Assembly (NCBI GenBank): GCA_963681965.1
Contig: OY820579.1
Span: forward strand, 2,496,001-2,560,000
DNA: 64,000 nucleotides
Source of the DNA: a bacterium
GTDB taxonomy: Bacteria; Electryoneota; JAOADG01
Direction: 5' to 3'
Shown: in pieces, positions 2,892 to 34,035 of the stretch
Layout: each line of letters starts with the position of its first letter
Numbering within the stretch: position 1 is the stretch's first letter
Position numbers and translations under genes: made by a program
The notes under the pieces: model-generated
The model's database searches: none
What the model saw: the letters and a program-made list of their open reading frames with translations, nothing else
What the model was told of the DNA's origin: nothing

Positions 2892-3451
2892 TTGCACTGT
2901 TCAAGCGGGTTAACACAGTGAGAACAATAATCGGGAGGTTGAGCTTGCGAATAGAAATCATACGAGAGATCGACAAGGTACGCACCATGACCGTTAAGGC
3001 ATTGCGGGAAAAGTATCTGGAGGTATTTGGGGAAACTACCCGCTCTGGAAACAAGGACTTTCTCTGGAAGCGGATAGCCTGGCGGATACAGGCCATCGAG
3101 GAAGGCGATTTATCGGAACGGGCGCGACGTCGCGCCGAGGAACTGGCATCCGATGCTGACTTACGAGTTCGCACCCCATCTAGCGCCCTGGCGGAACCTG
3201 TCGCGTTGAACGCGGGCATTACTGCTACGTATGCGTTTCAAGTAACTACCGACCAGCGTGTACCCATACCCGGGACAATGCTTACCCGTCAGTACAAAGG
3301 AACAACGATCCGGGTAATGGTACTGGCGAAAGGCTTTGAATACAACGGGAAGCTGTATCGCACATTGACTTCCATCTCGAAAGAAATTACCGGTTCCCGC
3401 TGGAACGGTTTTCACTTCTTTGGATTGCAGAAGGAAGGAGTTGCCGCATGA
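2888..3451 (+). CDS. DUF2924 domain protein (true start probably ~2939)
   Basis: LWKRIAWRIQAIEEGDL, PGTMLTRQYKG, SLT-like/EITGSRWNGFHFFGL motifs; directly upstream of the serine recombinase. Confidence 0.85.
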   Translation: MIALFKRVNTVRTIIGRLSLRIEIIREIDKVRTMTVKALREKYLEVFGETTRSGNKDFLWKRIAWRIQAIEEGDLSERARRRAEELASDADLRVRTPSSALAEPVALNAGITATYAFQVTTDQRVPIPGTMLTRQYKGTTIRVMVLAKGFEYNGKLYRTLTSISKEITGSRWNGFHFFGLQKEGVAA

Positions 3452-17688: not shown

Positions 17689-18348
17689 ATGACGAAACCC
17701 AGTAAAATCAATACTTCCGTGCGAAACGACCGCGCAAACAAGCCCGCGCTACCGGCTCCAGTTCCGAATTTGCAAGTAAGCGTAAACGAGAAACAGACGC
17801 TGAACGGTGCTGCGATCTGTGGTGTGGTTTCGAAGAAAGGAAACGAGTGCAGCCGAGCAGCGATGGCGAACGGTCGCTGCCGTTTTCATGGCGGGAAACT
17901 GTCCGGAGTAATGATGGCTCGCCCCGGAAATCGCAATGCAGTCAAGCATGGTGCATTTCTGCCTGATATCCAGGACGAACGCGAACAGAATGCGTTCGAT
18001 CTGTTCTTGTCCGATCTTTACGAAGTCTTCCCGGATCTGAACAAAGCGAGCGATCTCCGACATGCTCAGCTGGCTGCCATTACCTATATCCGTTTGCTAC
18101 GTGCGCTTTGGGGCGAAGCTTCAAGCTCTACGATAGACGATCTCTCCCGAGCGTTCACGCGGCACCTTGCGGCAATACGGGTAAACCGTGACCAACGGGT
18201 GAGCGAGACCGATGCCCACGCAGGTCCGAGATCGCCTGCCGAATATGCGGTTGAGATCATTCAGCAGGTTCGGATGTATTCGAAGGGTGGTGCTTCTCCA
18301 GTTTCAATCGATCCCGTTTTGCTCGGGTTGGACGTAGAAAATGACTGA
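17689..18348 (+). CDS. HGGxSTG-domain protein, putative terminase small subunit
   Basis: C..C..NGRCRFHGG and PGNRNAVKHG; position upstream of terL. Confidence 0.7.
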   Translation: MTKPSKINTSVRNDRANKPALPAPVPNLQVSVNEKQTLNGAAICGVVSKKGNECSRAAMANGRCRFHGGKLSGVMMARPGNRNAVKHGAFLPDIQDEREQNAFDLFLSDLYEVFPDLNKASDLRHAQLAAITYIRLLRALWGEASSSTIDDLSRAFTRHLAAIRVNRDQRVSETDAHAGPRSPAEYAVEIIQQVRMYSKGGASPVSIDPVLLGLDVEND

Positions 18349-18480
18349 GATGCTTCAGGGGCTAAAGTGTCATAATTCTATCGCTTGTGATTTCAAAGCG
18401 ATAGAAATGAATGATTCTAATCTGGATTATAATAATCAGGATTATAATCTTTCAGCACGCAGGCATGACATGCAGGCAGG

Positions 18481-18738
18481 TCAAGCATCGAGGTCGTCAA
18501 GCCCATCTCCGATTGTGCACTCCCATTCCTTACCGACCTGTTCGATCAAATCGGAATGTAAACGCAGCGATTCTGCAAACTCTTTTTGTCGTGCTTCGTG
18601 TACTACGTTCACCAATGCTTCCCTGCAAAATGCGGCAAGGGATATTCCTTTTGACCTTGCCATCTTCTGTGCAGCCACTTTTAGTTCCAGCGGAACCGTG
18701 ATCGTCATTCGAACCATGCGTTCTGATATTTTTGCCAT
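18481..18738 (-). CDS. Ribbon-helix-helix (CopG-like) regulator
   Basis: RMTITVPLELKVAAQKMARSKGISLAAFCREAL; RBS GGAG. Confidence 0.7.
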   Translation of the reverse strand: MAKISERMVRMTITVPLELKVAAQKMARSKGISLAAFCREALVNVVHEARQKEFAESLRLHSDLIEQVGKEWECTIGDGLDDLDA

Positions 18739-19321
18739 GTTTACTCCTGGGTTAGATCGCCACAGAATGCGTCTCCCGAATTGCCAAATCAAGTGTCGCC
18801 AGAAAAACGGAAAATACCCATCGCAGACCATCGCAAATTCGTTACGAGAAATCGCGACTTACGATCTAACTCGTGAGAATATCAGCAGGGAATCGGTATT
18901 CTGCGATTGTACCTCGGGCGGGGTGGCAGCTGCGTCGTCTTGGAATTCTGTTCAAATTCCGACGTGTGTCTGCTGTGTCCAGAACGTGTCAGAAGGTCGC
19001 TCTGATCGAAAATACAAAGACTTAGTAGATTTGCTGGTATGTCACGCTGGCGAATGTGTTCAAACGGCAGGGGTGGATTATGGAAATAGTTATGGATCAA
19101 ACTGCATAACTCGCAACAATTCAAAGGTTTGGCGATCTGTTCGAATATGTTCTGTCACCGTAGTGAAGTTTCGTTGGCCCAAGTTCTGGATCTTTCAATC
19201 GCAACCGCGAAACGCAACCGGCAAAGCTCGAAGCGAAAAACGCAGGGTAGCCCCAAAGGGGGTGTCTGGCAGGGTATTAGGGTCAAAATTCCGAATCAAC
19301 AGTGAAACTCTGGCTCGAAAC

Positions 19322-19501
19322 TCATTTGGCGAGCTTCTTCAAAGTTGCATCTTGCTCACCCATCAACCGTTTGGTTGCGATAGCAACTTTCTTCCGGTGG
19401 CGTTTCCGTTCAGGTTTCACCACCAGATCAGTATTGCTATTTGCTGGAATTTCTTCGACAGCACTGAGACGTTTCGATTTCAATGTTCGCCGATTATTCA
19501 T
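19322..19501 (-). CDS. 59-aa antitoxin-like peptide (not in the ORF track)
   Basis: RBS AAGGGA; ends ATKRLMGEQDATLKKLAK, similar to C-termini of Doc-associated antitoxins. Confidence 0.4.
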   Translation of the reverse strand: MNNRRTLKSKRLSAVEEIPANSNTDLVVKPERKRHRKKVAIATKRLMGEQDATLKKLAK

Positions 19502-19600
19502 GGTAGTCCCTTACACGAAAATTCCTGCAATTTTGCATTTCAAATGCAAATATACAGGCTTACTCAATGTGAATACAGAATTCAAAGCAAGAGTAATCAT

Positions 19601-20509
19601 CTAGTTAAATCTGGCTGTTCGGCTTTCCATCGCTTCTTCGAACGACTCGTCGGTTATATGAGCATAAATCTGCGTATGGACGATGCTGCGATGTCCGAGC
19701 GCCTTCTGTACAACCAGAATATCGTGGTTCTTAGCATACAGCGAAGTGGCAAAGGTGTGCCGGAGTTTGTGGGGAGTGACTTGCTTCAGGATGCCTGCTC
19801 GTTTTACCCACTTCGACACGACGATTTGAAAGCCTCTGCTCACCATTCGACCGTATTGCTGGTTTACGAAAAGAGCATTCACGTTGCTGTCAGTTGCGAA
19901 GTGTTTTCGTTCACCTTGGATGTACTGATCTATGGCATCGCGAGTGATCGATGGAAGAAATTTGCGAATGGGGTTGCCACCTTTTGCTCGCTTGATGAAA
20001 AGATGTTTATCGGAGATATCAGCCAGTTCGATCTGTGCCAGCTCACCTACCCGGATTCCGGTATCGAGCAACACCCGGATGATCGCGTAGTCCCGTTGCT
20101 GATGAATATTGCGCGGGTAATCTCGCAGACAATCGAGCAGTTGCTTCTCCTCAGCTTCATTGAGGTAGGTCGGCGGCAACGGCTCAACATGTTTGATCTG
20201 CACGTGTTCCGCCGGGTTATCGGGAATATGACCATTTCGCTTTGCCCAGAGGAAAAACGATCGCAGTGCAGCCTTCATTCGGTTAATGGTATTCGCGTGT
20301 TTCATCGAGCCATCGGATTTGGTAGCGAACAATACGACAAAGCTGTCAATATCGCCGCTGGTAACGTTCTTGATAGTGGATATACCGGTAGCAGCAAAGA
20401 ACTCGAAGCAATGACCAAGGTCAGCAGTGAAGTTCTTGATAGTATGAGGCGACTTACTCTGAGCCAGCAAGTACGTCCGGTAGTCGACAATCAGTTGCTC
20501 AAAGCTCAC
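19601..20509 (-). CDS. Tyrosine recombinase (XerC/D-like)
   Basis: DTGIRVGEL, HKLRHTFAT, LGHRSIVHTQIY catalytic R-H-R-H-Y residues; N-terminal SAM-like domain. Confidence 0.93.
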   Translation of the reverse strand: MSFEQLIVDYRTYLLAQSKSPHTIKNFTADLGHCFEFFAATGISTIKNVTSGDIDSFVVLFATKSDGSMKHANTINRMKAALRSFFLWAKRNGHIPDNPAEHVQIKHVEPLPPTYLNEAEEKQLLDCLRDYPRNIHQQRDYAIIRVLLDTGIRVGELAQIELADISDKHLFIKRAKGGNPIRKFLPSITRDAIDQYIQGERKHFATDSNVNALFVNQQYGRMVSRGFQIVVSKWVKRAGILKQVTPHKLRHTFATSLYAKNHDILVVQKALGHRSIVHTQIYAHITDESFEEAMESRTARFN

Positions 20510-20715
20510 TGTTCATCCTCCTCGATGGTGAACCATGTCCAGTTTGTGGCATGGCGGAACCACACTTCCAATCGTTGTCCTACGAACTCCGTCAGATCGA
20601 GGCACATTCGGAAATCGCCATACAATACAAGTTCTTTGCCATTGTCTCGTAAAAAATTGAATTGCAGTATCGATCCTTCTTGGGAAAAAGACTGCAGGGT
20701 TGCGAAACACTCCAT
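20506..20715 (-). CDS. Hypothetical protein
   Basis: RBS AAGGAGG; coupled to the recombinase start. Confidence 0.6.
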   Translation of the reverse strand: MECFATLQSFSQEGSILQFNFLRDNGKELVLYGDFRMCLDLTEFVGQRLEVWFRHATNWTWFTIEEDEQ

Positions 20716-20725
20716 TGTATCCTCC

Positions 20726-20998
20726 TTATCGTTTCAAACCGGCGACTTTACCGTCTTCGCCGAGGGTCAAGTTCGAGAAATAACCAGAGCGCAATCTCTT
20801 CCACTCACTCTTGGCGTGGTAACTAGGGACGTTTTCAAAGACGATTTTCACTTCGTAGCGGACCGCTACTCGGGAAAGTTTGAAGCGGTAAAATCGCGGT
20901 TTCCCATCGGCACCAGGGAAAGAGTTTTGCAGGTGCCCGTAACTGTCAAGTTTCCAGCCTTTGCTCTGTGCCCAGTCAATGAATTGTTCTCTGGTCAT
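20726..20998 (-). CDS. Hypothetical protein
   Basis: RBS AGGAG; overlaps the upstream stop. Confidence 0.65.
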   Translation of the reverse strand: MTREQFIDWAQSKGWKLDSYGHLQNSFPGADGKPRFYRFKLSRVAVRYEVKIVFENVPSYHAKSEWKRLRSGYFSNLTLGEDGKVAGLKR

Positions 20999-21297
20999 TG
21001 GTTATCTCCTGTGGTGATGGGTTCTAACTCTTCGCGTCGCACTTCGACCTGTACAAACGATCCGGTAAAGCCAATCTCAATCGCGAAATACAACGCGGGG
21101 TCTGGTGTACCGGGTGCGATTAGCAGTTGGGGGTATTGATCGATGTTGTATCTGGTTAAAAAAAGATTGGCTTCGGGATCGCTTGGTTCCGGTTGGTTCA
21201 TAAAGAAGCCGGTAATCTCGGCATTACGCGGGTGGGTCAAGTATCTCACTTGCTGTCCAAGCCTGTACTGGATTGGGTTTGCGGGTTGTGCTGGCAT
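20995..21297 (-). CDS. Hypothetical protein
   Basis: RBS AAGGAG; preceded by a sigma70-like promoter at 21323-21356. Confidence 0.65.
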   Translation of the reverse strand: MPAQPANPIQYRLGQQVRYLTHPRNAEITGFFMNQPEPSDPEANLFLTRYNIDQYPQLLIAPGTPDPALYFAIEIGFTGSFVQVEVRREELEPITTGDNQ

Positions 21298-21375: not shown

Positions 21376-22950
21376 ATGAGTGGAAGTGTAAAGAAAGCAA
21401 AGGCTTCGCAGGGCGCATCCGTCGCAATTCCATCGGGATTAGCCAGTGTTTTTACCGTTCTGGTCGATCCTGCGGTATGGGGGGAGCACTACCTCAAGAA
21501 CCCGGATGGAACGAGGCGTAGCTACTGGCAGCATCAATACAGCGACTTACGGTCACCGGCAAAACAGATTATCCATCAGGATGGTCGCGAGGTCGGCAAA
21601 ACAATCGTGTTAACTACTCTGGTGCTGCATTACGGATTTACGACTCATAATGGTTCGGGCTTGGTGGCAACCCCGCATCAAGGACATCTCGAAACAATTA
21701 TCGATGAGATCGAGCAGCAGATTTTCAACAATCCAACGCTGCTGGCAAGTGTCGCAAAAAACCGTTATGGCAATCCCGACATCAGCCAGAAACCGTATTA
21801 CCGCATCCGGTTCTCGACCGGGACAGTAATCCATTTCCGGCAGGCGGGCGATTCCGGTCAACCATTTCGGTCGTTGCATGTCGACCGGGTCTGGGTCGAT
21901 GAGGCAGCCTGGATGACTGAGCGGTCTTGGAAAGCACTTCGGCGTTGTCTGAATGAGGCAGGTGTGTTTCGGATTTATTCGACACCGAATGGTCTACGCG
22001 ACACCACTTACTACCGGTTAACGCAGGATAAAAATAAACGGTGGCAGGTGGTGCGATGGCCATCGTCACTGCATCCCAACTGGACCGTAGCTCGCGAAAA
22101 AGAACTGATGGAATTCTATGGTGGTCGCGATACCTCCGGTTTCCAGCATGAGGTATTAGGGGAACATGGCAGTCCAACGTACTCGGCATTCCCAGTTGAT
22201 TCGATTCGCATTGCATTGACTGACATCCCGGAATACCAACGCGTGATTCTCACCGGTAATGAATTATCCGATTGCGAAACTGAGGATGCGATTCGGGCGA
22301 GACTCGATATGCTTGTCGGTCTGACTCCACAAAAAGGGAAGTTTTGGCTCGGTGGCGACCTCGGTTATACATCCGATCCATGCGAATTATTGGTGTGGCA
22401 GGAAGATGAAACCGGCAAGTTGTCACTGGTCTACCGGTTACATGCCGAGCATGTCGCCTATCCGATTATCGCGGAGCTGATTGCGGTGATGGATGATTAT
22501 TTCGGATTTGTAGGACTCGGTGTTGACGAAGGTGGTAATGGACTGGCGGTTGTTCAGGAACTGACCACACTCGACAAGTTTTCCGATGCGCGTTTCTCCG
22601 ACCGTTTACTTGGTTTCAACTTCGGAAGTTCGACTGTGATCGGATATACCGACGAAGGGAAGCAACGAAAAAAGCGCACCAAGGAGTTGATGACGAGTCT
22701 GATTAATGGTCGACTGTCGCAACGAACGATTCGTTTTCCCAACGACGATCCTGAAATCGAGGATCAGTTTACCACTCACACCTACAGCATGTCCGAAGGA
22801 AAGATCATCTATTCCAAGGGACGCGACCACATTATCGATGCAACGCGCTGCGCGATGCTGCGGGTGTATCTGGAAGAAATCAAAGAACTGAGGCCGGAAG
22901 TCGAAGAGGCAGCCTTAATGCCGCTTACCACTGATCCGTTATTTACGTGA
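21376..22950 (+). CDS. terL: Terminase large subunit
   Basis: GREVGKT Walker A, VDEAA Walker B, STPNG, RNase H-like GGDLG, DHIIDATR. Confidence 0.9.
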   Translation: MSGSVKKAKASQGASVAIPSGLASVFTVLVDPAVWGEHYLKNPDGTRRSYWQHQYSDLRSPAKQIIHQDGREVGKTIVLTTLVLHYGFTTHNGSGLVATPHQGHLETIIDEIEQQIFNNPTLLASVAKNRYGNPDISQKPYYRIRFSTGTVIHFRQAGDSGQPFRSLHVDRVWVDEAAWMTERSWKALRRCLNEAGVFRIYSTPNGLRDTTYYRLTQDKNKRWQVVRWPSSLHPNWTVAREKELMEFYGGRDTSGFQHEVLGEHGSPTYSAFPVDSIRIALTDIPEYQRVILTGNELSDCETEDAIRARLDMLVGLTPQKGKFWLGGDLGYTSDPCELLVWQEDETGKLSLVYRLHAEHVAYPIIAELIAVMDDYFGFVGLGVDEGGNGLAVVQELTTLDKFSDARFSDRLLGFNFGSSTVIGYTDEGKQRKKRTKELMTSLINGRLSQRTIRFPNDDPEIEDQFTTHTYSMSEGKIIYSKGRDHIIDATRCAMLRVYLEEIKELRPEVEEAALMPLTTDPLFT

Positions 22951-22958
22951 GGATTCCA

Positions 22959-24398
22959 ATGAAACTATGGCCGTTTACTACTGCACCAAAACCGATGGAA
23001 ACAACCACGATCACGATTCTCGATGATTCGATGGGTGCTGCCGCCGATATCTCCGGAACATTTTCGTCGGAATACACTGTGCAAGGGATTCCGACCATCT
23101 GGGAGGAACGCGGCAAGCTCGCCTGGCAATACTACACCGAGGAACCGATTGTCAACAACGCGATCAATGCCTGGCGTACGTTCGCTATCGGTGATGAGAT
23201 ACAGGTGACTTCCGATGATGAAGAAACCCGTAAAGCCGCACGTGATCTGTTCAAGCGACTAGCGTTGAATGACTTCGTTCGCGACATGATCCTGCAATTG
23301 CTGGTCAAAGGCGAATGCATGGGTTACAAGACCTACGGTGGACAGAAAAAGAAAACCGTTGGCGGTAAGGAAGGATATTCCGAGATCGAACAGATCTGGT
23401 GTCTGAATCCGGTTTCGGTTCAGTTCCAACTGGATAAGGGCGAGATCGTAAAGATTATTCAGAAAACCGAAGATGCTGTTGGCATTACCTCCGGTAGTGA
23501 GATCGAACTCAATTCCGGACAGTTCTATCACCAGAAATGGAACAGTCCCCAGTTTAACTCGCGTGGCAACTCGATGGTACTCCCGGCATTCGAGTCGATT
23601 GAGCTGATGCGCGACTACCGGCGTGCCGAGCGTGCCATCGCCAAGCGGTGGACGACTCCGCTTCGTTTTATCACGGTTGGTGGCAAGTTCGGTGATAAGG
23701 TAGTAATGCCGACGCAGAAGATGCTGCAGCAGGTGCGCGATACGATCAATAAAATGGATTTAAAGTCGGGTATGGTCGTTCCGTTCTATGTCGATGTGAA
23801 AACCTACGGCGCCGAAGGAATTGTTCTCAATACCGAAGAGAAAGTCAAAGAGATCAAATCCGATATCGTTGTTGCCCTCGGTTTTGTCAAATCACTGATT
23901 ACCGGTGAGGGTCCCAACTTTGCCACCGCCAGTGTCGGTTTCTCCAAAGTTATTCTGATGCTGAAGGAGATCAAGCAGATTGCTCGCGACGTGTTGACCT
24001 GGATTTTCGACGACTGGAAGGAATTGAACGGCTGGCAGGACAAACACATCGACTTCATTTTTTCCGATATCGATCTCACCAATGAAGATGGTCAGAAGAA
24101 GATGCTGGTCGAGCTGTATGATCGGAAAATCATCTCCATCGATACGCTACAATCGAAGTTGGGTCTGCGCCCCGAAGTGGAGGCTGCCAATCAAGTCGAG
24201 GAGCGGAAGAGTACCATCGATTCCCTCACGATCAAGGACATCGCGACTCTGATCGCATCAGGAGTGGTCTCGGTGCAGACCGTACAGGAACATCTCGGAC
24301 TTGATCCTGTTACCGAGGATAAAAACATGAAACAATCCGATGCGCAGAGTGTAGCAGACATTTATGCATCGGTTGATTTGCCGGATGTTCTCCAATGA
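22959..24398 (+). CDS. Portal protein
   Basis: Follows terL; ~480 aa; EPIVNNAI, RGNSMVLPAF, NFATASV. Confidence 0.8.
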   Translation: MKLWPFTTAPKPMETTTITILDDSMGAAADISGTFSSEYTVQGIPTIWEERGKLAWQYYTEEPIVNNAINAWRTFAIGDEIQVTSDDEETRKAARDLFKRLALNDFVRDMILQLLVKGECMGYKTYGGQKKKTVGGKEGYSEIEQIWCLNPVSVQFQLDKGEIVKIIQKTEDAVGITSGSEIELNSGQFYHQKWNSPQFNSRGNSMVLPAFESIELMRDYRRAERAIAKRWTTPLRFITVGGKFGDKVVMPTQKMLQQVRDTINKMDLKSGMVVPFYVDVKTYGAEGIVLNTEEKVKEIKSDIVVALGFVKSLITGEGPNFATASVGFSKVILMLKEIKQIARDVLTWIFDDWKELNGWQDKHIDFIFSDIDLTNEDGQKKMLVELYDRKIISIDTLQSKLGLRPEVEAANQVEERKSTIDSLTIKDIATLIASGVVSVQTVQEHLGLDPVTEDKNMKQSDAQSVADIYASVDLPDVLQ

Positions 24399-27300
24399 CA
24401 CAGCAAGAACGAATAATAGCGGAAACGGCGAAGAGTCTGGCAGCAGTCGACAAATACAGCGACCGCCAGATTAAGTCTTTGTTGCAATCGCTCCAGCAAT
24501 CCTCCGTCCAGATCAGGGGTGAGCTGCTGTCGCTCGCCGGTCGTGGTTCGGCAACGCCGGGATTGCAGATTCGTCAGGATCAACTGCTGGCGATTCAGAA
24601 GCGCATCGATGCGATTATCAGTCAGCTCAATGAACAGCAATCGGTTCTATTTACTGGGATAACAAAAGATTCGTTCCAGAATGGTGTGCATTCCGCGATC
24701 AGTGAGTTCGGTAACATTGGTTTCCCAACATACGATTCGCTCAATCAATCTGACCGGTTGGCATTAGCTACCGATGCCATGAGTGTGATCGATACCCAGG
24801 CGCTTGATTTTCTTACAAACTATCATCTGCAACTGCTTGGAAATGTTTCGCAGCAATTAGCTGACAGTATCAAGCAGGAATTAAACACCGGAATCATTAC
24901 TGGTTCTAGTATCGCCGACGTGGTCGAAAAAATTGGTGGTGTCATACCCAACCCAGACGAGTTCCGGGTAGCTGGTAAGACCGTTTTCAAAACTGCACAA
25001 CAGCGCATCGAAACGATTACCCGCACCGAGATCTTGCGGGCGCATAACCAAGGTCGGGCAAAATTCTACCAAACAGTTGGTGTCCAGAAAGTTACCTGGA
25101 TTACGGCGCAGGATGAACGCACCTGCCGGGAATGTGCCCCGCTCGATGGTAAGGAATTTCCTATTGCGGAAGCACCATCACTTCCCCGTCACCCGATGTG
25201 CCGGTGTACCACTTTCGTTTCGGCACCGCTTACGATCTGTGGACAAGGTGAACCAATTGCGATGGCAGCAGCAACGGGGGCTGGATGTATCATGCCTGCC
25301 ACCCAAGTTCAGCAACTGTCGAAAGTGCAACAAGCCAGTACTGCCAAGGTACAGCAGGCATTCCAGAGTGGTGATCCGGCACAGTTGCAACTTCTCACCA
25401 TCAAAGAGATTCAGGGTCTGGCAATGCAGAATGGAGTCGCCATTGCCCGTACCAAGAGTGATTTTATTGCATTGCTGGATCAAGCGGAAATCGGCATCGA
25501 TCATTCGCAGCTTGGTGGACCCGCACTCAAGGCGAAACTGGCACAGTATAAAATCGGAGCGCTCCGCAGCAAAGACGAACTAGTCAAGTTGCTGCTCCAG
25601 AAAAAGCAATCCGTTTCCCAAGTTGTCACCCAAACAATACCCGTCGTGCAGCAACAGGCGCTGATTGATCTCGCAAAACAAGAACTAGATCAGTTGACGA
25701 GTGCAGTATCGTTTCCAACGAGCGTTACAGATTATCAGTCGTTTCTTGCATCGGTATCTGCGGTGGAAAGTAAGATTGCTGCTCTTTCCGGTGATCAGGC
25801 TTATGTGAACATTATCAGTCAGCCGTTGCAAAATATGCAACAACTGAAATCAAGCTGGCAGGCATCGCTTACCGCAAAATCATCCAGTGATCTGAAAACA
25901 CTGGCTAAGGATGCGAAACTTACTCACTGGCAATGGGCATCGAAAGATGAAGTAGTAACACTTCTTTCGTCGAACGATCCGGTACAACGGCAGGGTGCGG
26001 TTGCATCCATAGAGTCCAAGTATGCAAAATGGGCAGAAAAACATGGCGGTAAGTCAGTTAAATCGCAGGCGATCCTTCCCTCGCCACCTCGCGCCCCCTC
26101 GTTGCTCAAGCCAGCAGTTAAACCTATTACTCAAACAGTTGTTACTCCGATTCCACTTTCCCGTTATTTCGATCCAACGGCAGCACTCACTCATACCGAA
26201 CGAGATCAATTGTGGGAGCAGGTTCGGCTACAACCAGATCAGCATTTCAAGTTCAAACGGCATGCGAATGATCTTGGTGGTGGACACCCAAAGGATATTT
26301 TCGTTGATGCTCGAGGACAGGAATGGATGTTCAAGCCAGTAGATGCTGGTTCCGAATTTGCTGCTGAGGCGGAAACTGCTGCCTACAAGATCGGTCGCAT
26401 CGTCGATGACAATATGGTGGAAGTTCGGGTTGTCAAATTAAATGGACAAACCGGAACGATTCAACGAATGATCGCCGAACTGTCAGACAAATCCGATCTC
26501 ACTTTTTTCGAACCCAGTAAATTTAGTGCTGACGAAATTGAGCAACTGCAGCGCCACCGCGTTATCGACTGGTTGGTCTCCAATCACGATGGTCACGTTG
26601 CCCAGTTCCTTCGTACCCAGGATGGTCGTCTTATCGGAATCGATAAGGGACAGGCGTGGCGATACTTCCCGAATGACAAGCTAGGAATCGACTATCATCC
26701 CAATAGCCGGTTCGGTGAACGGGAGCCGGTATACAACACACTGTTCCGGATGCAGAAAAATGGTGAGATAACTCTCCCATGGCAGCCGATTCTCGATACG
26801 ATCAAGCGACTGGAACAACTCAGTGATGATGAATTGTGGTCGTACGTCGAATCCTATGCGACCGGTCGTTTCCAAAACGACAGTGCCGGTCTCCGTAAAT
26901 TCAAACTGATGCTGGTCGACCGCAAGAACAACCTGCGCAGGGATTTTGAAGCATACATCAAGACCGTTGACAAAAAGTTCAAGGGATTTGATGCCGTAAC
27001 TGCAGAATCGAAAGCGAGCGGAAAAGTTGTTGATCCAAAACGGAAACAAGCCGAGGAATTAATCAAGAAAGTCGATGATGCAGGTTGGCAGGGAGTCACC
27101 ATAGATTTTGATAGTGGCGATGTAGAAGACATGAACCTGCTCGTATTCACTGAAAAAGTAAACGGTAAGCCCCGCACTGCCGTGAAAATGAAGTTGTTGA
27201 AAGATGCCGATCAACGGGTACATAAACTGATCAAAGGGCTAATTGAACCAGATGCAGCAGTAGGTCAACCACTTCCGGAAGATCACTACTTTGACACAAT

Positions 27301-28708
27301 TGTATCTGCATTGAAAACGATTCAATCTGGTTCCAAAAAAACTACCAAAATTGATGCGGCAACTAGTTTCCTGAATGAATTGAATTCGCTGCGCGTTTCC
27401 AGCGATCCTGACATCAAGGCAATGGCGGAGCGTTACCATTACTGGATCAATGTGATCAAGAATTGGCAGAATGCTGGTAACACAGGACTTATACCAGAAA
27501 TCGAAAGTGGTCAACATCTTGATCTGTATCTCAAAATGCCGCCAGCTAAAAAGGCGGGCAAGAAGACTGCTTCATTTTCTGTAAAAAAGGGGACTGTTAG
27601 CTTTGAATCGCGGGTCGCCAAGGGGAAAGAAATCGAGGTAAAAGGCAATCGCCGAGGCGCTGGTCAGATCTTTCATCGCGGTGACACCTCTGTTCAGTAT
27701 CAGATTGACTTTGGTGACGGGACTACCGCATACTATACCCCCACTGTATCAGCCAACAACAGTTTATTCGCGGTGAATGGTGAAATCGAGTTCTTTGTCG
27801 ATGGAAAAGCAACTCCTGAACTTTTAGATCGCATTATTCAGCACTCGAATACACTTGGTATCAATGGTAAAATAGCGACTGACGAGGACATCGAATTGAT
27901 GTATTTGCTTAAGCATGGGTACGTCTTGAAGGATGTGGAACAATCCGGTTACAAACAACTTCTGGATAATTTCGAATCTACCAAAGCATCCACAACTGAG
28001 CGCATCCGAGTATTGCGTGACTATTGGTCGAAAAAAATGGGTGTGAAGGATGTAACCAAGGTCCCAAGTTATCAGCCACAAGGTGTATTGCAATTCGGCA
28101 CCACCGGTGGCATCCAACAAGCTGGTCATCGGGTACAAATGCGGTTCGATTTGAGTGATGCAATGTTGGAAAAGCAGTTGCCTGGTGTCTCGCTAGTACA
28201 CTCGCTTACCAATGATTATGGACATATTGTTGAGTTTTTCGATCAAGTGTTGGCTGGCAATGGAACACTCGTAAGTACGGTGGAAAAGTTGCGTTGCGGA
28301 ATACCGGTGGGTGGAATGTCGCCTGCAGAAGATATGTCCAGTGGTGGTGCTACCTATGTATTTACTCGCATAAAATCTGCTACTGACAGTCGATCAGAAG
28401 GTATTTACTTCAAAAAGAGCATGCTTAGAAGGCTCGATGCGATCAGTTACGATCATGATAAGTACGGTCGAGTCACTGGTAATGACGTGATCGAGAATCG
28501 GCACAGTACGATTGATGGATTTCGTCACTGTGCAGGCCGTTCTGGTAATGAAACCATTTTCAAATACACAGTGACATTATTGGATAACATTGAGGAAGTT
28601 CGGGTTAATCAGGGTCGTCGTAGTAAGATGCTGGAAGTATTCAAGAGGCATGGCATCAGCCGGTTGCCAGATGGTAGAAAAGTCGAAGAAGTAGTTAAGG
28701 ACTCCTAA
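24395..28708 (+). CDS. MuF (SPP1 gp7-like) head morphogenesis protein extended with Rho-N/HeH-like repeats, a HipA/CtkA-like kinase and a putative ART-like C-terminal domain
   Basis: MuF ITRTEILRAHNQG..W..DERTCREC..PRHPMCRC; kinase LGGGHPK..WMFKP..AETAAY..DWLVSNHDGH..IGIDKG; C-terminal LVH..YVFTR..NETIFK. Confidence 0.85.
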   Translation: MTQQERIIAETAKSLAAVDKYSDRQIKSLLQSLQQSSVQIRGELLSLAGRGSATPGLQIRQDQLLAIQKRIDAIISQLNEQQSVLFTGITKDSFQNGVHSAISEFGNIGFPTYDSLNQSDRLALATDAMSVIDTQALDFLTNYHLQLLGNVSQQLADSIKQELNTGIITGSSIADVVEKIGGVIPNPDEFRVAGKTVFKTAQQRIETITRTEILRAHNQGRAKFYQTVGVQKVTWITAQDERTCRECAPLDGKEFPIAEAPSLPRHPMCRCTTFVSAPLTICGQGEPIAMAAATGAGCIMPATQVQQLSKVQQASTAKVQQAFQSGDPAQLQLLTIKEIQGLAMQNGVAIARTKSDFIALLDQAEIGIDHSQLGGPALKAKLAQYKIGALRSKDELVKLLLQKKQSVSQVVTQTIPVVQQQALIDLAKQELDQLTSAVSFPTSVTDYQSFLASVSAVESKIAALSGDQAYVNIISQPLQNMQQLKSSWQASLTAKSSSDLKTLAKDAKLTHWQWASKDEVVTLLSSNDPVQRQGAVASIESKYAKWAEKHGGKSVKSQAILPSPPRAPSLLKPAVKPITQTVVTPIPLSRYFDPTAALTHTERDQLWEQVRLQPDQHFKFKRHANDLGGGHPKDIFVDARGQEWMFKPVDAGSEFAAEAETAAYKIGRIVDDNMVEVRVVKLNGQTGTIQRMIAELSDKSDLTFFEPSKFSADEIEQLQRHRVIDWLVSNHDGHVAQFLRTQDGRLIGIDKGQAWRYFPNDKLGIDYHPNSRFGEREPVYNTLFRMQKNGEITLPWQPILDTIKRLEQLSDDELWSYVESYATGRFQNDSAGLRKFKLMLVDRKNNLRRDFEAYIKTVDKKFKGFDAVTAESKASGKVVDPKRKQAEELIKKVDDAGWQGVTIDFDSGDVEDMNLLVFTEKVNGKPRTAVKMKLLKDADQRVHKLIKGLIEPDAAVGQPLPEDHYFDTIVSALKTIQSGSKKTTKIDAATSFLNELNSLRVSSDPDIKAMAERYHYWINVIKNWQNAGNTGLIPEIESGQHLDLYLKMPPAKKAGKKTASFSVKKGTVSFESRVAKGKEIEVKGNRRGAGQIFHRGDTSVQYQIDFGDGTTAYYTPTVSANNSLFAVNGEIEFFVDGKATPELLDRIIQHSNTLGINGKIATDEDIELMYLLKHGYVLKDVEQSGYKQLLDNFESTKASTTERIRVLRDYWSKKMGVKDVTKVPSYQPQGVLQFGTTGGIQQAGHRVQMRFDLSDAMLEKQLPGVSLVHSLTNDYGHIVEFFDQVLAGNGTLVSTVEKLRCGIPVGGMSPAEDMSSGGATYVFTRIKSATDSRSEGIYFKKSMLRRLDAISYDHDKYGRVTGNDVIENRHSTIDGFRHCAGRSGNETIFKYTVTLLDNIEEVRVNQGRRSKMLEVFKRHGISRLPDGRKVEEVVKDS

Positions 28709-28710
28709 TC

Positions 28711-29172
28711 ATGAACATGAATTTGGCAGATGAAATTATTCGCATTCAGGCAATCTTCGATGATATTATGAAATCAGGTTCGTGGATTCTAGTGGAATTC
28801 GCGAAGGACGATACCCTGGATCTCGATATCGGATGTTACTACAAAGTGTTAAAGGTGATGCCCGGCTTCGATGCAGCAGGCAACCTGATAGATACTGATT
28901 TCTGGTTGCTCTTTTGTACTGCAGGTTATGAAGATGACAGCCATCATGGACACGTCAAGAAAATTCTTGACATGACAAATACTGAGTTTGGTGTCGACTT
29001 GCAGACTTCGGATGGTGAATATCTCCACATTGAGCGGATTTGCTTTGGTGTGGATACACAGCATGAATCGAGATGGCAACAGTACCAGCGGTTGGTTGCT
29101 GACAATCCTGAAAAGTACACGGAATTACAGATTGCGTATGTCGCTGATGCGCTATCACGGATGGAGGACTAA
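28711..29172 (+). CDS. Hypothetical acidic protein, candidate immunity protein
   Basis: Starts 2 bp after the MuF stop. Confidence 0.65.
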   Translation: MNMNLADEIIRIQAIFDDIMKSGSWILVEFAKDDTLDLDIGCYYKVLKVMPGFDAAGNLIDTDFWLLFCTAGYEDDSHHGHVKKILDMTNTEFGVDLQTSDGEYLHIERICFGVDTQHESRWQQYQRLVADNPEKYTELQIAYVADALSRMED

Positions 29173-29510
29173 TGAGAGTCAAATATCTGATCGATGCGCT
29201 ACTCGTCGATGATATCGCTGGCGGTCTCACCTGGAAACCGGTTGGTGTCTGGGCGGTAGAAATCGGCGCAACCACGCTGGCATTTGAGTGGAAGTACTTA
29301 CCCATTAATCCGGAACGGGATGCCGAGGCTGACCGGATTGCGACTGCGCTGGTGGAAAATGGAGTGACTGTTTTGCCAGCGGACTTTCTGGAGTATCACC
29401 AGATTGCTTACAATTCCTACACCGGACAATTCTACGGTCCGTTTGAGGGGGAGTTTGCCAACTTGCCTGCTTGTTGTGATAAAATCCTCAGATCTTTCGG
29501 TGGGGTGTGA
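29172..29510 (+). CDS. Hypothetical protein, candidate second immunity protein
   Basis: TAATG coupling; RBS GGAGG. Confidence 0.65.
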   Translation: MRVKYLIDALLVDDIAGGLTWKPVGVWAVEIGATTLAFEWKYLPINPERDAEADRIATALVENGVTVLPADFLEYHQIAYNSYTGQFYGPFEGEFANLPACCDKILRSFGGV

Positions 29511-29513
29511 TCG

Positions 29514-29729
29514 ATGCGGACGTTAATGAAATTGCTGAACGAAGTTCTGAACAAGCCATTTTTCGGAAAGATCACGATCTTTGTCAACAACGGCCGGATT
29601 TCTTCCATTGAAAAACAGGAAACCGTTCAGGTGAAAGAGGGAGGCAACAGTGAAAGCCTTACGACCATCATCGACCAGAATTCGCAGTTGTATCGCGAGC
29701 TAATTGGAGGTAATGATCTGCGAAAATGA
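29514..29729 (+). CDS. Small DUF2292-like protein
   Basis: FGKITIFVNNGRISSIEKQET. Confidence 0.5.
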   Translation: MRTLMKLLNEVLNKPFFGKITIFVNNGRISSIEKQETVQVKEGGNSESLTTIIDQNSQLYRELIGGNDLRK

Positions 29730-30034
29730 TTCGTCGAAGTACCGTATCGTTAGGTATATCAAGCTTATACAGGATTAGTTGTGTAAAAATGGACTGCGAG
29801 TACATATTTACACATGTTTTGTTGTAACCAGTTTATAATTCAGTAATTATGACGTCTGTTTTTTGCGTTGTGTTGATGTTCTTTATTCGTCTTCTCGCTC
29901 TCCAATAATAAATTGATAACGAATAATCATGTACTTAGTTTTTCTGAACGCACTTGCACACCCTTTCTTTGTTTTGTATTGTACATATACTTCGCGTTTC
30001 GCGAATTGCAAATTGAAGTTGTAAAGGAAAGACG

Positions 30035-30553
30035 ATGAAAAAGAGTTCGGTAATGAGACCGCAAGACATCGTGATTCTACTAAAGTTAGTAGCTATTCGT
30101 GATGCGGAAAAAAGAATGATTGACCTTGCGAATGAATTGTTTATCAGTCTTTCAGAAGTATCAGAATCGTTGAACCGTTCTTACATCTCTGGGTTGATAG
30201 GATCAAATAAAAGGGATGTCCATAGAAAAGCATTTCTGGAGTTTCTGATCTATGGAATTCGGTATGTTTTTCCTCAGTACCCAGGTGCAATTGTAAGAGG
30301 TATGCCTACGGCGCACTCGGCATCACCGATGAAAGAGAAGATTTCTTCGCATGCTGGCGAATATTTCGTATGGGAGGATGTCGATGGCGAAGTTCGCGGT
30401 CAAAAGATTGAACCGTTATTCATTTCAGTGCCTAAAGCTGCAAGAATCGACCACGACCTTTATGAGTTATTGACGTTAGTTGATTCCCTTCGAGTAGGTC
30501 AACCCAGGGAAATTGCTGTAGCGCAACACCTTCTCAAGGAAAGGTTTCATTAG
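30035..30553 (+). CDS. wHTH protein resembling type IV TA (AbiEi-like) antitoxins
   Basis: MRPQDIVILLKL, HTH, LLTLVDSLRVGQPRE; RBS AAGGA. Confidence 0.6.
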   Translation: MKKSSVMRPQDIVILLKLVAIRDAEKRMIDLANELFISLSEVSESLNRSYISGLIGSNKRDVHRKAFLEFLIYGIRYVFPQYPGAIVRGMPTAHSASPMKEKISSHAGEYFVWEDVDGEVRGQKIEPLFISVPKAARIDHDLYELLTLVDSLRVGQPREIAVAQHLLKERFH

Positions 30554-30555
30554 TT

Positions 30556-31011
30556 TTAATGTGATAATTGACGAGCGTTGTGTCTTGTAGATTGGGAATT
30601 GCTTTTAGACCTCGTCCCAACAGCGCTTGATCGTTTCTTACCCGAACTTGTTTCGAACAAGTATGAAACTGGAATGCCCAATCCTTCGTGGATAGCGCTG
30701 ATCATTTTCTTGCTAAGTTCGCGCTTGCCAGATAGCACTTCATACACTCGTGTTCTTGTCCCAATGAATGGAATGAGATCCTTGTTGGTTAATCCCTGTT
30801 GTTCCATCACGAATCGGATCATTTCAATCGGGGAAACTTTCAAATCTCTCATTGAGCTGTGCGCATCGTCGAAGTGTTGCATTAGAACAGCAATTAACTC
30901 AATCTCATTTGCTTCGGGTGAATTAGGTTGCGGATCGAGCGCAATCAAGCTGTCCATCTCGTTGAGAGCAGCCTGGTAATCTTCCGCAGTTTTAATTAGT
31001 TTCAGTTCCAT
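30556..31011 (-). CDS. higA: HigA antitoxin (XRE HTH)
   Basis: IKTAEDYQAAL, PIEMIRFVMEQQGL..GTRTRVYEVLSGKRELS. Confidence 0.9.
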   Translation of the reverse strand: MELKLIKTAEDYQAALNEMDSLIALDPQPNSPEANEIELIAVLMQHFDDAHSSMRDLKVSPIEMIRFVMEQQGLTNKDLIPFIGTRTRVYEVLSGKRELSKKMISAIHEGLGIPVSYLFETSSGKKRSSAVGTRSKSNSQSTRHNARQLSH

Positions 31012-31019
31012 AGTTTCCC

Positions 31020-31307
31020 CTATCCTAACCTAAGTTTATCATACTCCGCGTGCGTTCCAATCCAAACGACTCGCACGACACCAGCAACATACACTACCTG
31101 TACTACCAACCGATGCTTGTTTCCACGTATGTTAAATATGACACGGTTATCGTGTAGGAAACTAGCAGTCGCGAACCTAAGCTTAATATCATGAGTGGTT
31201 TTCCACTCTGCTTCGGTTATCAGCATAACCCACGCTTTCAAAGCAATGGCTACGTCAGCATGAGATCGGCAATAGTCGTCGATTAGTTTCCGGTTTGCGA
31301 TTAACAT
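31020..31307 (-). CDS. higB: HigB toxin (mRNA interferase)
   Basis: RVIFNIRGNKHRLV..WIGTHAEYDK. Confidence 0.92.
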   Translation of the reverse strand: MLIANRKLIDDYCRSHADVAIALKAWVMLITEAEWKTTHDIKLRFATASFLHDNRVIFNIRGNKHRLVVQVVYVAGVVRVVWIGTHAEYDKLRLG

Positions 31308-31482: not shown

Positions 31483-31532
31483 CCGGCATCATACTTCTGA
31501 GGAAGAGGTATGGTGCCGGTTTTTTTGTTTTT
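31483..31532 (+). terminator. Terminator/attenuator hairpin in the leader of the head operon
   Basis: CCGGCATCATAC / GTATGGTGCCGG 12-bp stem (one G-U pair) followed by a T-tract. Confidence 0.7.
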
Positions 31533-31542
31533 AGGAAAATTG

Positions 31543-34035
31543 ATGCACCTCGATTCGCAAATTCGTTACTTGCTCCAGACTCATGCTGAACTGCGTTCAG
31601 TAGCTCAGGATAAGGCTGAACAGGTTTCGTACGTAACCAATTACATCGGCTCGAAACAAAAACTTGTCGAGTGGATTTGGTCACACACCCCCCACGGTGT
31701 GCAGAGTGTGCTTGATGCGTTCAGTGGCAGCTCCGTTGTTGGTTATATGTATAAGCGGCAGGGCTTGCGGGTCGTGGCTAACGACCGTTTGAAGTACGCA
31801 TTTCACATCGCCCGGGCGATCATTGAGAACAACGATACGACTCTTTCAGAAGGCGATATCGATGGATTGCTCGCGGATAACTCAAAGGCGCGAACCTTTG
31901 TCCAGGACAACTTCAAGGGGTTGTTCTTCGCCAAAGGTGTGCATGCAGCTATCGATAACATTCGCACCAACATAGATGATCTGCGCGGGTACAAAAAGGA
32001 TATCGCACTGTTCGCACTTGCGAAAGCGTGCATCAGTGGCAAGGGCGGTTTCGGCCATTTCCAATCGTCGGTACGGTACGGAAAATTCGAAGATACTCTG
32101 GATGAATTCACCAAGCGATTCCGCGATAACTGTGCGACGATCAACCAGCTCGTGTACGACAACGGCAAAGAGAATCGTGCCGAAAACTCCACCATCGATG
32201 AGTTGCTTCCCGGTGTTAAAGTTGATCTAGCCTATTTCGATCCACCGTATGCGACCGAGTTCTCGACCACCAATTACGAAAGCTATTACCACTTTGTCGA
32301 AGGACTGATGACCTATTGGGACGGTCTGACTATCAATATCGATAGTGCCACCCACAAGTTCATTGAAACCGGTGAACAGACGGTAACGCAGGCATCTGCC
32401 GAAGCATTTTTTGAGACGTTTCTGAAGAGTGCCGCTGGTATCGGATGCTGGATCATTTCTTATCGCGATCATGCCTTTCCCAACGAAGCGAAGATCAAAT
32501 CTCTAATTGCGGATTCCGGTAAAGTGTCCCGAATGTTTTCGAAGGATCACTCTTACCAGCTCGCCGGAAACGACCGTCGTGGCGATGCCTCACAAGCCAA
32601 AGAGCGGATATTCGTCTGCGGACCAACTGAGACAGCAATACGAGTTGTAGCAGATTTGGAAGAGGAAGTATCTCAAACTTCACAGGGAGTATCTGAGCAA
32701 TTTCCAGCAAGTGGTTTTCGTGACGAGAAACACTGCAAAGCAACGATCACTGCCAATATCAAGTTGGTTGCCGATGCGAAAGTCGCCGGTGTCGCTGATA
32801 CAGATCCTGAGTTTGTATTTGTACTAACGCACGTCGGCACCAATCTCAACGGTGATAATTTCACTCGCGACGAACTGATCAAAGCTGCACCTACTGCGAT
32901 TTCACGCAAAGTCGATCTCAAACATTCGCAGGATCTCACTGACATCGTCGGTGGCATTACCGATTCCCAGTGGAAAGATGAAGAGGGCGGTTTGATAGAA
33001 TGTACCGGTCGTCTCTTTGTTTCTGATAATCCGCACGCCCAGCTCGCTTACCGGCTCATGAAGGAAGGGATCGTCAAGCAGGTCTCAATGGAATGCCAGT
33101 ACGATGCAGGTGAGTGTTCGATCTGTGGAAAGAAATTCTCTTCTAAGGCTGACTACTGCATCCATCTCCGCAAATACAAAGGTGCCACTTATCAGGGAAA
33201 ACCGGTATTTGAAATCCTGCGTGGTGTCGTGTTTACCGGTGTGGGATTGCTTTCCGATAAAGGTGCCGACGAACGTGCGGTAATCCGTTCCGTTGCTGCA
33301 ACTGGAGACAAAATGAAAACACAGGCATTGTCTTTTTCCGAATATTTCCTCCAGCAACAGCGCAGTATGACGCTGTGGGACGTCGTGGGAGGATTACAAA
33401 GTTATCTGGGCGACCTACTTGGCAAAGTGAAGAATGAAGACCTCACCAACGACCAGGCCTTTGAACTGATGCAGAGTGGTGTTGAGCAATTTCGTTCCTC
33501 GCTGGAGGAGCTGTTTCAAAATCCAGCCGATTTACCAACTGTGGAGGCAAAGAAAATGAGTGATCAGAAACCACCGGAAACCCCTCCGGCGAGTGAGGCA
33601 GCTCCGGCAAGCGAACAGATCAAGACGCTGACGCAGGAGAATGCCGATTTGAAAAAGCAGGTCGAAGAGCTGGCGAAGCAACTTGACACGCTGAAGAAAG
33701 CTGCTGCTCAAGAAAAAGCGAAGGCAAAAGCGACGGAATTAGTGAAACGATTCGAACTCAAGGGTCGCACGTTCGCCAATGATACCGAGCGGGAAGCTGA
33801 GATTGAACGTCTATCAGCGCTTTCTGAAGATGCGCTCGCTGCAGTCGAAAACAGTCTTGCCGTTATCCCGGACATGAGTGCGCAGGCGAATCGCCAGCCG
33901 GTACTCAAAACCGATGCCGGTGTAAAGCCGGTCAATGTTCCCGATGCACCTCCCGGTGATTCACTGGGCAGCGAGCTGAAGGAAGGGATTCTGGCTGCTT
34001 ACAAACACAATCGTGGCGAACCGGTAAACCCCTAA
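31543..34035 (+). CDS. Fusion of D12-class N6-adenine DNA methyltransferase, prohead protease and scaffold
   Basis: NYIGSK, LDAFSGS, DPPY; then NLNGDNF..DLKH..VSMEC..CSIC..GADERA protease; coiled-coil C-terminus; upstream of the capsid genes. Confidence 0.85.
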   Translation: MHLDSQIRYLLQTHAELRSVAQDKAEQVSYVTNYIGSKQKLVEWIWSHTPHGVQSVLDAFSGSSVVGYMYKRQGLRVVANDRLKYAFHIARAIIENNDTTLSEGDIDGLLADNSKARTFVQDNFKGLFFAKGVHAAIDNIRTNIDDLRGYKKDIALFALAKACISGKGGFGHFQSSVRYGKFEDTLDEFTKRFRDNCATINQLVYDNGKENRAENSTIDELLPGVKVDLAYFDPPYATEFSTTNYESYYHFVEGLMTYWDGLTINIDSATHKFIETGEQTVTQASAEAFFETFLKSAAGIGCWIISYRDHAFPNEAKIKSLIADSGKVSRMFSKDHSYQLAGNDRRGDASQAKERIFVCGPTETAIRVVADLEEEVSQTSQGVSEQFPASGFRDEKHCKATITANIKLVADAKVAGVADTDPEFVFVLTHVGTNLNGDNFTRDELIKAAPTAISRKVDLKHSQDLTDIVGGITDSQWKDEEGGLIECTGRLFVSDNPHAQLAYRLMKEGIVKQVSMECQYDAGECSICGKKFSSKADYCIHLRKYKGATYQGKPVFEILRGVVFTGVGLLSDKGADERAVIRSVAATGDKMKTQALSFSEYFLQQQRSMTLWDVVGGLQSYLGDLLGKVKNEDLTNDQAFELMQSGVEQFRSSLEELFQNPADLPTVEAKKMSDQKPPETPPASEAAPASEQIKTLTQENADLKKQVEELAKQLDTLKKAAAQEKAKAKATELVKRFELKGRTFANDTEREAEIERLSALSEDALAAVENSLAVIPDMSAQANRQPVLKTDAGVKPVNVPDAPPGDSLGSELKEGILAAYKHNRGEPVNP

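Follow-up and report, generated by a model that had tools for sequence, protein, structure and literature searches.

A conserved kinase–ADP-ribosyltransferase cassette on a MuF-type phage head protein, a candidate head-packaged effector

Why would a phage head protein carry enzymes? The question is raised by a gene in the 64,000-nucleotide window analysed here (positions 2,496,001 to 2,560,000 of contig OY820579.1, assembly GCA_963681965.1), part of the 4.24-Mb single-contig genome of a bacterium of the Electryoneota. The gene encodes a protein of 1,437 residues whose N-terminal part belongs to the MuF family of head proteins. A first-pass annotation, made from the sequence and its translations, took much of the remainder for two enzymatic cargoes delivered from the virion, a HipA/CtkA-like kinase and a putative ADP-ribosyltransferase (ART). 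Predicted structures and invariant catalytic residues indicate that the C-terminal 840 residues comprise a kinase of the PI4K-II/CtkA/HipA type, two further modules (here D4 and D5a) and a DarT-like ART with an H-Y-E triad, all in one cassette. We consider it probable, at roughly 60%, that the protein is a head-packaged polyvalent effector: its kinase–ART cassette would reach the host together with the phage DNA and act on host molecules that are widely conserved. Its parts are as follows, in window coordinates:

24395–28708, plus strand: gene of the MuF polyvalent head protein, 1,437 residues (ATG-started open reading frame (ORF) and its translation)
24395–25294, plus strand: residues 1–300, MuF/SPP1 gp7 head-anchoring region (PF04233, TIGR01641, phrog_115)
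25382–25489, plus strand: residues 330–365, SAP/HeH unit 1 (aligned to the Pfam SAP match of relative P0008)
25508–25606, plus strand: residues 372–404, HeH-like unit 2 (conserved alignment block, by eye only; no family match)
25871–25975, plus strand: residues 493–527, Rho_N/HeH unit 3 (aligned to the Rho_N match of relative P0106)
26072–26170, plus strand: residues ~560–592, Pro-rich, poorly conserved linker (translation and alignment)
26192–26989, plus strand: residues 600–865, atypical kinase domain (fold model and invariant residues K647, N730-H-D732-G-H734 and D750 of IDKG)
27080–27454, plus strand: residues 896–1020, module D4 (three strands and a helical part, from the model and conservation; fold not identified)
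27572–27805, plus strand: residues 1060–1137, module D5a (six-stranded sheet in the model; invariant Y1114 and E1132)
27815–28705, plus strand: residues 1141–1437, ART module (helical subdomain and an ART core at ~1251–1437; H1269, Y1321 and E1386)

Residues 596–1020, folded with 114 aligned sequences (predicted local distance difference test (pLDDT) score of 87.3), are predicted to contain a two-lobed kinase fold of the PI3/4K–CtkA–HipA group. A Foldseek search of the Protein Data Bank (PDB) returned at least 500 matches at E ≤ 0.001, and all 50 of the matches listed are kinases; in the structural comparison, 110 of 1,000 chains reached Z ≥ 8. The top matches are PI4KIIα (4hnd_B; Z 14.7, root-mean-square deviation (r.m.s.d.) 3.9, 233 residues aligned) and CtkA of H. 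pylori (3akk_D; Z 14.7, r.m.s.d. 3.7, 219 residues aligned), followed by Fam20 (12.4), Vps34 and other PI3Ks (about 11), actin-fragmin kinase (11.0), HipA (10.5) and CotH (10.4). Identity to PI4KIIα, CtkA and HipA is 11–16%, and the domain described here is located within a phage head protein.

The motifs agree with the fold. LGGGHPK (residues 627–633), WMFKP with K647, NHDGH (730–734) and IGIDKG (747–752) are all present, and G629, H631, K647, N730, D732, H734 and D750 are invariant among the 114 aligned sequences; in 24 of 24 long and far more divergent relatives, the Gly, Lys, Asp and Asp columns do not vary. By motif position, K647 would be the ATP-binding lysine, D732 the catalytic-loop aspartate and D750 the metal-binding aspartate. 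We take the catalytic loop to be of the D-x-H-x-x-N/Q type, followed by I-D-x-G, as in PI4KII, CtkA and HipA. Given these structural matches and motif residues, the label ‘HipA/CtkA-like’ is right at the level of the fold. The motif assignments made in the first-pass annotation stand with one correction, which concerns the helix-C glutamate that it had placed in AETAA: the best-conserved Glu column, at residue 661, is Thr in this protein, and E660 lies beside it.

For the C-terminal module, residues 1040–1437 were folded with 120 sequences (pLDDT 85.2, predicted template modelling score 0.83) and compared with 48,161 chains in a search independent of Foldseek. The ten best matches all belong to the ART superfamily and are clear of the unrelated rows below them. 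DarT1 is the best (8baq_A; Z 7.8, r.m.s.d. 3.4, 155 residues aligned, model positions 212–398) and three more DarT structures follow at Z 7.1–7.8, so that the DarT matches overall span 143–155 aligned residues at r.m.s.d. 3.2–4.1; SopF (5.9), CopC and OspC3 (4.7), Tpt1 (4.1) and CteC (3.8) rank lower. DarT is also the top Foldseek match (7omw; E 0.067, probability 0.94), with CteC and SopF listed as well. In a viral structure library, seven matches at E ≤ 0.001 include an iridovirus protein and large polyvalent-type phage proteins; baculovirus matches are weaker and fall short of that threshold. An arthropod-virus family, ORF28, has been called DarT-related (PMC9503650, in part). The nearest language-model neighbours, which are clusters of OspC, DarT/PARP, DarT and Arr, all score below 0.9 and serve as leads only.

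The H, Y and E residues that had been picked out by eye in LVH, YVFTR and NETIFK prove to be H1269, Y1321 and E1386, which are invariant in 120 sequences. They lie at the starts or ends of successive strands of the model (227–230, 282–288 and 347–351). Among the 24 long divergent relatives, H is kept in 22 (Q in the other 2) and Y and E in all 24; a further 16 distant relatives keep the triad, the only exception being H in 1 of the 16. The predicted fold supports the proposal of a C-terminal H-Y-E ART, at Z values below 8. Models devoid of kinase or ART folds would have refuted the first-pass annotation; as it is, they speak in its favour. DarT, an ARTD-type enzyme of the H-Y-E class according to the relevant passages of PMC11543638, is the nearest solved fold. 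Judged on sequence, the module is not a DarT: the DarT Pfam model (PF14487) has no match in the genome at E ≤ 1e-10, with one candidate scored. The neighbouring ORFs (28711–30553) have no Pfam match to a macrodomain or NADAR partner.

Both domains are parts of a larger conserved unit. Of 2,421 candidates, 147 are homologues at E ≤ 0.001; most of the best 120 have 1,500–1,550 residues, and the only names they bear are ‘minor capsid’ or ‘head morphogenesis’. The 105 full-length relatives are conserved from end to end, with every module kept in 105 of 105. A search with the ART module (residues 1160–1437) reached 818 representative clusters (50% identity) at E ≤ 0.001, 508 at 1e-10 and 197 at 1e-30, and the module is nearly always C-terminal, in proteins of up to 3,181 residues. 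Among the best 150 representatives, 113 have at least 1,000 residues. Profile hidden Markov models (HMMs), used for the census because single-sequence phmmer under-detected the kinase, found kinase, D4, D5a and ART together in 106 of these 113, kinase, D4 and ART in 5, and D4, D5a and ART in 2; the kinase is thus found in 111 of the 113.

N-terminal parts vary. In the 24 long divergent relatives, Pfam recognizes MuF in 18, NUDIX in 7 and Zeta_toxin in 2. Single matches to DUF3626, KOW, AAA_33 and ATLF also occur in this set, and in the largest relatives (P0212, P0259, P0261 and others, up to 3,181 residues) extra modules precede the same C-terminal cassette. The family is therefore a constant cassette of about 840 residues (kinase, D4, D5a and ART) on a variable, polyvalent N-terminal part. 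The two cargoes of the first-pass annotation are both present as folds, but they are not separate; what is new here is that the kinase and the ART are not independent and belong to one conserved four-module cassette. Shorter homologues of the ART (66) and of the kinase (15) are mostly contig-end fragments of the same family, and no named stand-alone form was found among them.

Relatives are encoded by 206 viral contigs and 143 species genomes. Their hosts include Armatimonadota, Acidobacteriota, Desulfobacterota, Nitrospirota, Verrucomicrobiota, Planctomycetota and Gammaproteobacteria, among others, and carrier genomes include those of cultured Desulfosarcina, Syntrophus, Desulfobulbus and Ectothiorhodospira strains, among them Desulfosarcina alkanivorans PL12, Syntrophus buswellii DM-2 and Ectothiorhodospira shaposhnikovii DSM 243. 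The whole protein has no match at E ≤ 1 among sequences of solved structures. Against phage records, megablast found no match, and tblastn found 68 records, none of which covers at least 80% of the protein.

The middle of the cassette is less easily placed. No Pfam family matches residues 880–1140 at E ≤ 10, and an Atlas search with residues 890–1215 gave no usable match. In D4, whose strand part is modelled at pLDDT 54–81, Q899-G900, D906, E911, D912 and K933 are invariant and the preceding G897 and W898 nearly so. Invariant acidic residues lie on strands in both modules (D906, E911 and D912 in D4, E1132 in D5a). We do not claim a triphosphate-tunnel (CYTH) fold for D5a: its matches, several of them to CYTH-type chains (2dc4, 3bhd, 2fjt and 2een), have Z values of 2.9–3.4, which is noise level, and serve as a lead only.

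A cyanophage provides a clue to how these modules are grouped. Pan1 gp15 has the strand part of D4 (501–556), then directly D5a (559–642) and the ART (647–917), and no kinase. By this order, both middle modules go with the ART and could make up a single domain; here the two were folded in separate models, in which a joint D4–D5a domain would escape detection. A literature search on Pseudanabaena phage Pan1 returned a passing citation only.

The other end of the protein ties it to the phage head. Pfam Phage_Mu_F (PF04233) matches residues 158–273 (E 5.8e-15, 56.4 bits against a cut-off of 29.6) and NCBIfam TIGR01641 (phageSPP1_gp7) matches residues 195–274 (E 6.1e-15, 55.6 bits against 39.65). 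The minor head protein family phrog_115 also matches (E 2.1e-28), as do many PHROG head-morphogenesis families. With curated cut-offs passed and the gene adjoining a portal gene in a packaging module, the protein is a member of the MuF/SPP1 gp7 family, in agreement with the initial call of an N-terminal MuF domain.

Three Rho-N/HeH-like units had been proposed behind this domain. Two of them (330–365 and 493–527) are supported through the SAP and Rho_N matches of relatives, whereas the third (372–404) is recognized by eye only. In the 1,437-residue protein itself, neither SAP nor Rho_N has a Pfam match at E ≤ 1; among 51 relatives, Rho_N is matched in 16 and SAP in 11. A profile search of the PDB with the family profile gave just a SAP stretch of Ku70 (E 0.24) and titin (E 0.52). 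Near residue 410, an additional SAP/Rho_N pair is present in most relatives, and its absence explains why this protein has 1,437 residues rather than ~1,520. The Pro-rich linker, likewise visible in the translation, is poorly conserved, with a gap fraction of 0.46–0.49 and an identity of 0.15–0.19 among the 105 relatives.

The surroundings are those of a head module. About 60 kb around the MuF gene is a temperate myovirus-type prophage, with genes for a large serine integrase, exonuclease, helicase, primase-polymerase, tail sheath, tape measure and tail fibres. Five genes bear on the argument:

21376–22950, plus strand: terminase large subunit (phrog_2, E 2e-24)
22947–24398, plus strand: portal protein (phrog_2739, E 6.9e-45)
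28711–29172, plus strand: conserved acidic gene, 153 residues, isoelectric point (pI) 4.4, starting 3 nucleotides past the MuF stop; may bind or inhibit the ART module
29172–29510, plus strand: conserved acidic gene, 112 residues, pI 4.5, overlapping the stop of the 153-residue gene
34484–35350: major head protein of the prophage

The start of the MuF gene (24395) overlaps the 3′ end of the portal gene (24398). Across 160 related loci, the order is terminase (homologue in 103), portal (125), MuF gene (160), 153-residue ORF (113), 112-residue ORF (128), a methyltransferase-like gene (127) and capsid gene (85), with the portal homologues on the same strand and ~6 kb ahead of the MuF stop.

The methyltransferase-like gene of this module (31510–34035, plus strand) encodes 841 residues; its N-terminal domain is a D12-class N6-adenine DNA methyltransferase (PF02086, E 4.9e-22; phrog_27806, E 6e-203), and a coiled-coil stretch lies at the C-terminal end. 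Where related loci extend at least 6 kb downstream, 88 of 92 keep it. As it occupies the position at which a protease or scaffold gene is expected, it may be a head-associated methyltransferase.

Both small acidic genes are also part of the conserved module. In the 144 loci with at least 900 nucleotides downstream, the 153-residue protein has a homologue in 105, at a median of 35 nucleotides past the MuF stop, and the 112-residue protein has one in 124; median identities are 27% and 37%, respectively. Neither matches a family in Pfam, PHROGs or NCBIfam. At E ≤ 1, an HMM of the 153-residue protein and a jackhmmer search with the 112-residue protein found nothing in the Pan1, McProf, Aikoy and Phrappuccino loci.

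The 153-residue protein may bind the ART module, as a complex prediction with residues 1056–1437 weakly suggests: the score is 0.51 (runs of 0.50, 0.80 and 0.51), whereas the best of three controls scored 0.00. The runs share at least 59% of their contacts, with the partner at pLDDT ≥ 81. In the benchmark, 58 of 80 solved complexes and 2 of 110 mismatched pairs reached the mark, counts that hold roughly here because our own alignments were used; scores of 0.60 or below that reached it came from only 7 of the 80 solved complexes and from both passing mismatches. Were the binding real, it might keep the ART inactive, or folded, until packaging.

The idea that MuF proteins carry enzymes into the capsid for injection is already published (PMC5512222, PMC9503650, PMC5576092 and PMC6316719, each in part). 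The closest class is that of the polyvalent proteins (Iyer, Burroughs, Anand, de Souza and Aravind 2017, PMC5512222), which the relevant passages describe as multi-domain proteins of the head module with MuF, HeH, kinase and ART domains, predicted to be packaged and injected. The present protein likewise combines several effector-type domains in one phage polypeptide linked to packaging genes. Its modules differ from those passages in two respects: the polyvalent kinase described there lacks the whole C-terminal subdomain, whereas the model here has a helical C-lobe, and the polyvalent ART clade is H-Y-D rather than H-Y-E (PMC5512222). Neither Pfam family for these domains matches the MuF gene; the only match of Kinase-PolyVal (PF18762) in the genome lies elsewhere and below the cut-off (E 0.043), and the only one of ART-PolyVal (PF18760) also lies elsewhere (E 0.67). 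The cassette fits the in silico class of polyvalent MuF effectors while standing outside Pfam Kinase-PolyVal, ART-PolyVal and DarT.

SPP1 gp7, Mu gp30 and the MuF toxins (Jamet et al. 2017, PMC5576092, in part) resemble it in the N-terminal MuF domain, the portal-adjacent gene, the temperate phage, the C-terminal extension and the small downstream ORF. By comparison with the toxins of that study, the extension here is long (~1,100 residues), consists of several modules and is conserved, and the hosts belong to many phyla rather than mainly to Firmicutes. Phage T4 Alt is a precedent for the proposed route, as an ADP-ribosyltransferase that travels in the phage head and is injected along with the DNA (PMC5512222, in part). 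Alt differs in its R-S-E motif and in being unfused to MuF or a kinase; the ART described here has H-Y-E and a DarT-like fold.

A further comparison comes from mycobacteriophages. McProf gp54 and Aikoy gp15, annotated as a ‘minor capsid and ADP-ribosyltransferase fusion’, have a homologous kinase (~30% identity; E 1e-40 to 1e-41) and a C-terminal ART, although that ART is of the R-S-E ADPrib_exo_Tox type and D4, D5a and the DarT-like module are missing. The occurrence of one kinase family with an unrelated R-S-E ART may hint at a so far undescribed functional coupling of phosphorylation and ADP-ribosylation. The kinase domain is unannotated in three mycobacteriophage proteins (McProf gp54, L001; Aikoy gp15, L003; Phrappuccino gp195, L198; ~30% identity, E 1e-38 to 1e-41), the records of which give an ADP-ribosyltransferase/minor-capsid fusion or a hypothetical protein; in two of the three, the kinase occurs together with ADPrib_exo_Tox.

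Delivery in the virion might proceed as follows. By analogy with SPP1 gp7, which the portal targets to the procapsid interior and which supports the start of infection (PMC6316719, in part), the N-terminal MuF/gp7 domain would bind the portal and bring a few copies into the procapsid. The SAP/Rho-N units, judging from their families, would hold the protein on the packaged DNA, ahead of a flexible Pro-rich linker. By analogy with T4 Alt and with the model for polyvalent proteins, the protein would then leave the capsid together with the DNA, and early in infection widely conserved host proteins or nucleic acid would be phosphorylated and ADP-ribosylated in favour of the phage. In the producing cell, the 153-residue acidic protein may bind the ART module, perhaps holding it inactive or folded until packaging. 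We can also imagine a more specific, and doubtful, version in which the parts form a co-evolved machine: a virion-borne, DNA-tethered, DarT-like nucleic-acid ART, working with or gated by the kinase and held inactive by its acidic neighbour, that on ejection marks host or incoming DNA or RNA and thereby stalls host replication or blunts defence.

Several points count against the proposal of a head-packaged effector. The packaging, ejection, enzyme activity and host targets are all drawn by analogy from SPP1 gp7, T4 Alt and the in silico polyvalent class. The best ART match (Z 7.8) is middling and below the caution line of 8, Foldseek gave no PDB match at E ≤ 0.001 for the ART model, and no ART family is among the 25 Pfam families listed as matching any of 51 relatives at E ≤ 1. 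In hhalign, comparison with 27 DarT sequences gave a probability of 3%, the sole local pairing being that of the NETIFK strand with QAEFLI in the DarT profile, presumably the site of the DarT catalytic glutamate. On the kinase side, HipA_C scores 13.2–17.9 bits against the protein, under the Pfam cut-off of 30.5; its weak matches in 25 of 51 relatives (best E 7.3e-05) and those of PI3_PI4_kinase in 2 of 51 are likewise all below cut-off. The cassette HMMs were built from 24 of the same 113 proteins that were then scanned. The score of the predicted complex lies in the weak range, in which predictions fail more often than they hold true, except where binding was probable to begin with. Finally, an identity of ~45% across hosts of many phyla could also fit a role in assembly or DNA handling for the phage.

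In one alternative, the targets of the enzymes belong to the phage, whether in the producing cell or within the capsid: the DarT-like transferase, tethered to DNA by the SAP units, might for instance ADP-ribosylate phage DNA, or the kinase might modify head proteins, for protection against restriction or control of ejection. A target carried by the phage would account for conservation across so many host phyla, and the nearest solved folds are the DNA-modifying DarT enzymes, the protein has SAP/Rho-N DNA-binding units, and the adenine methyltransferase-like gene is a steady member of the same head module. We nevertheless regard self-modification as unlikely, as DarT enzymes use single-stranded DNA (PMC11543638, in part) but the DNA in the capsid is double-stranded, ARTs known to be packaged in heads, such as T4 Alt, modify host proteins (PMC5512222, in part), and similarity of fold does not fix the substrate. 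That the two enzyme modules are inactive and serve a large internal head protein as structural or scaffolding parts seems very improbable. Neither reaches a curated family cut-off, and the MuF protein of phage Mu offers a precedent in its inactive PBECR domain (PMC5512222, in part); yet the catalytic Lys/Asp/Asp and H-Y-E positions are invariant or nearly so at a mean column identity of 16–46%, a pattern difficult to account for unless these sites serve catalysis or bind a ligand.

Competition is the remaining alternative. Toxin-type enzyme folds follow a MuF domain, as in the MuF toxins of Jamet et al. (2017, PMC5576092, in part), and the tentative contact between the 153-residue protein and the ART module (0.51 against 0.00 for controls) would suit an immunity protein made by the lysogen, with the C-terminal enzymes as growth-inhibiting toxins directed at competitors or superinfecting relatives. 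Such a toxin–immunity pair is quite improbable here. MuF polymorphic toxins place variable C-terminal toxins on a conserved MuF domain, whereas this C terminus is constant in the full-length relatives (105 of 105) and in the wider census (106 of 113), and we rejected the polymorphic-toxin reading as the main explanation on that ground; of the two roles that the first-pass annotation had offered, anti-defence and inter-strain competition, the latter is accordingly the weaker. The small ORFs, rather than being exchanged as cassettes, are conserved together with the head module, and their position in a late head operon means that expression in the lysogen would not be expected.

Effectors packaged in the head belong to the earliest phage proteins active in an infected cell, and to our knowledge very few of them have been examined experimentally (T4 Alt, P1 Dar and the N4 virion RNA polymerase). 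Delivery of this kind is an established idea, but the enzyme cassette itself, very widespread as it is, appears unstudied: our literature search found no study of it, just the general in silico framework, whose supplementary architecture lists (PMC5512222) may include the family. Curated families cover neither enzyme module. If active, the cassette would be a new and widespread means of combining phosphorylation with ADP-ribosylation when the phage takes over its host; it might also include a new phage-borne nucleic-acid ART that comes with an inhibitor of its own.

Further features of the window deserve mention. Between the 112-residue gene and the methyltransferase-like gene, a stretch of ~2 kb (29514–31307, both strands) has a counterpart in 0 of 160 related loci. 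It contains a 71-residue DUF2292-like ORF and a 172-residue ORF with faint matches to helix-turn-helix (HTH) regulators, and on the minus strand a 151-residue HTH_3 regulator and a 95-residue ORF; it looks like a moron or a regulatory insertion within the late operon. Just upstream of the terminase gene, a 932-residue ORF (18341–21139, plus strand) has no match in Pfam, PHROGs or NCBIfam and a homologue in 0 of 160 related loci. The first large serine recombinase of the window lies at 3448–5028. A second, with Resolvase and Recombinase domains (59172–60755, plus strand), follows a short stretch (58948–59187, plus strand) at the end of a 237-residue ORF that, via one TGA readthrough, is 41% identical to the HeH region of the MuF protein (residues 332–411).

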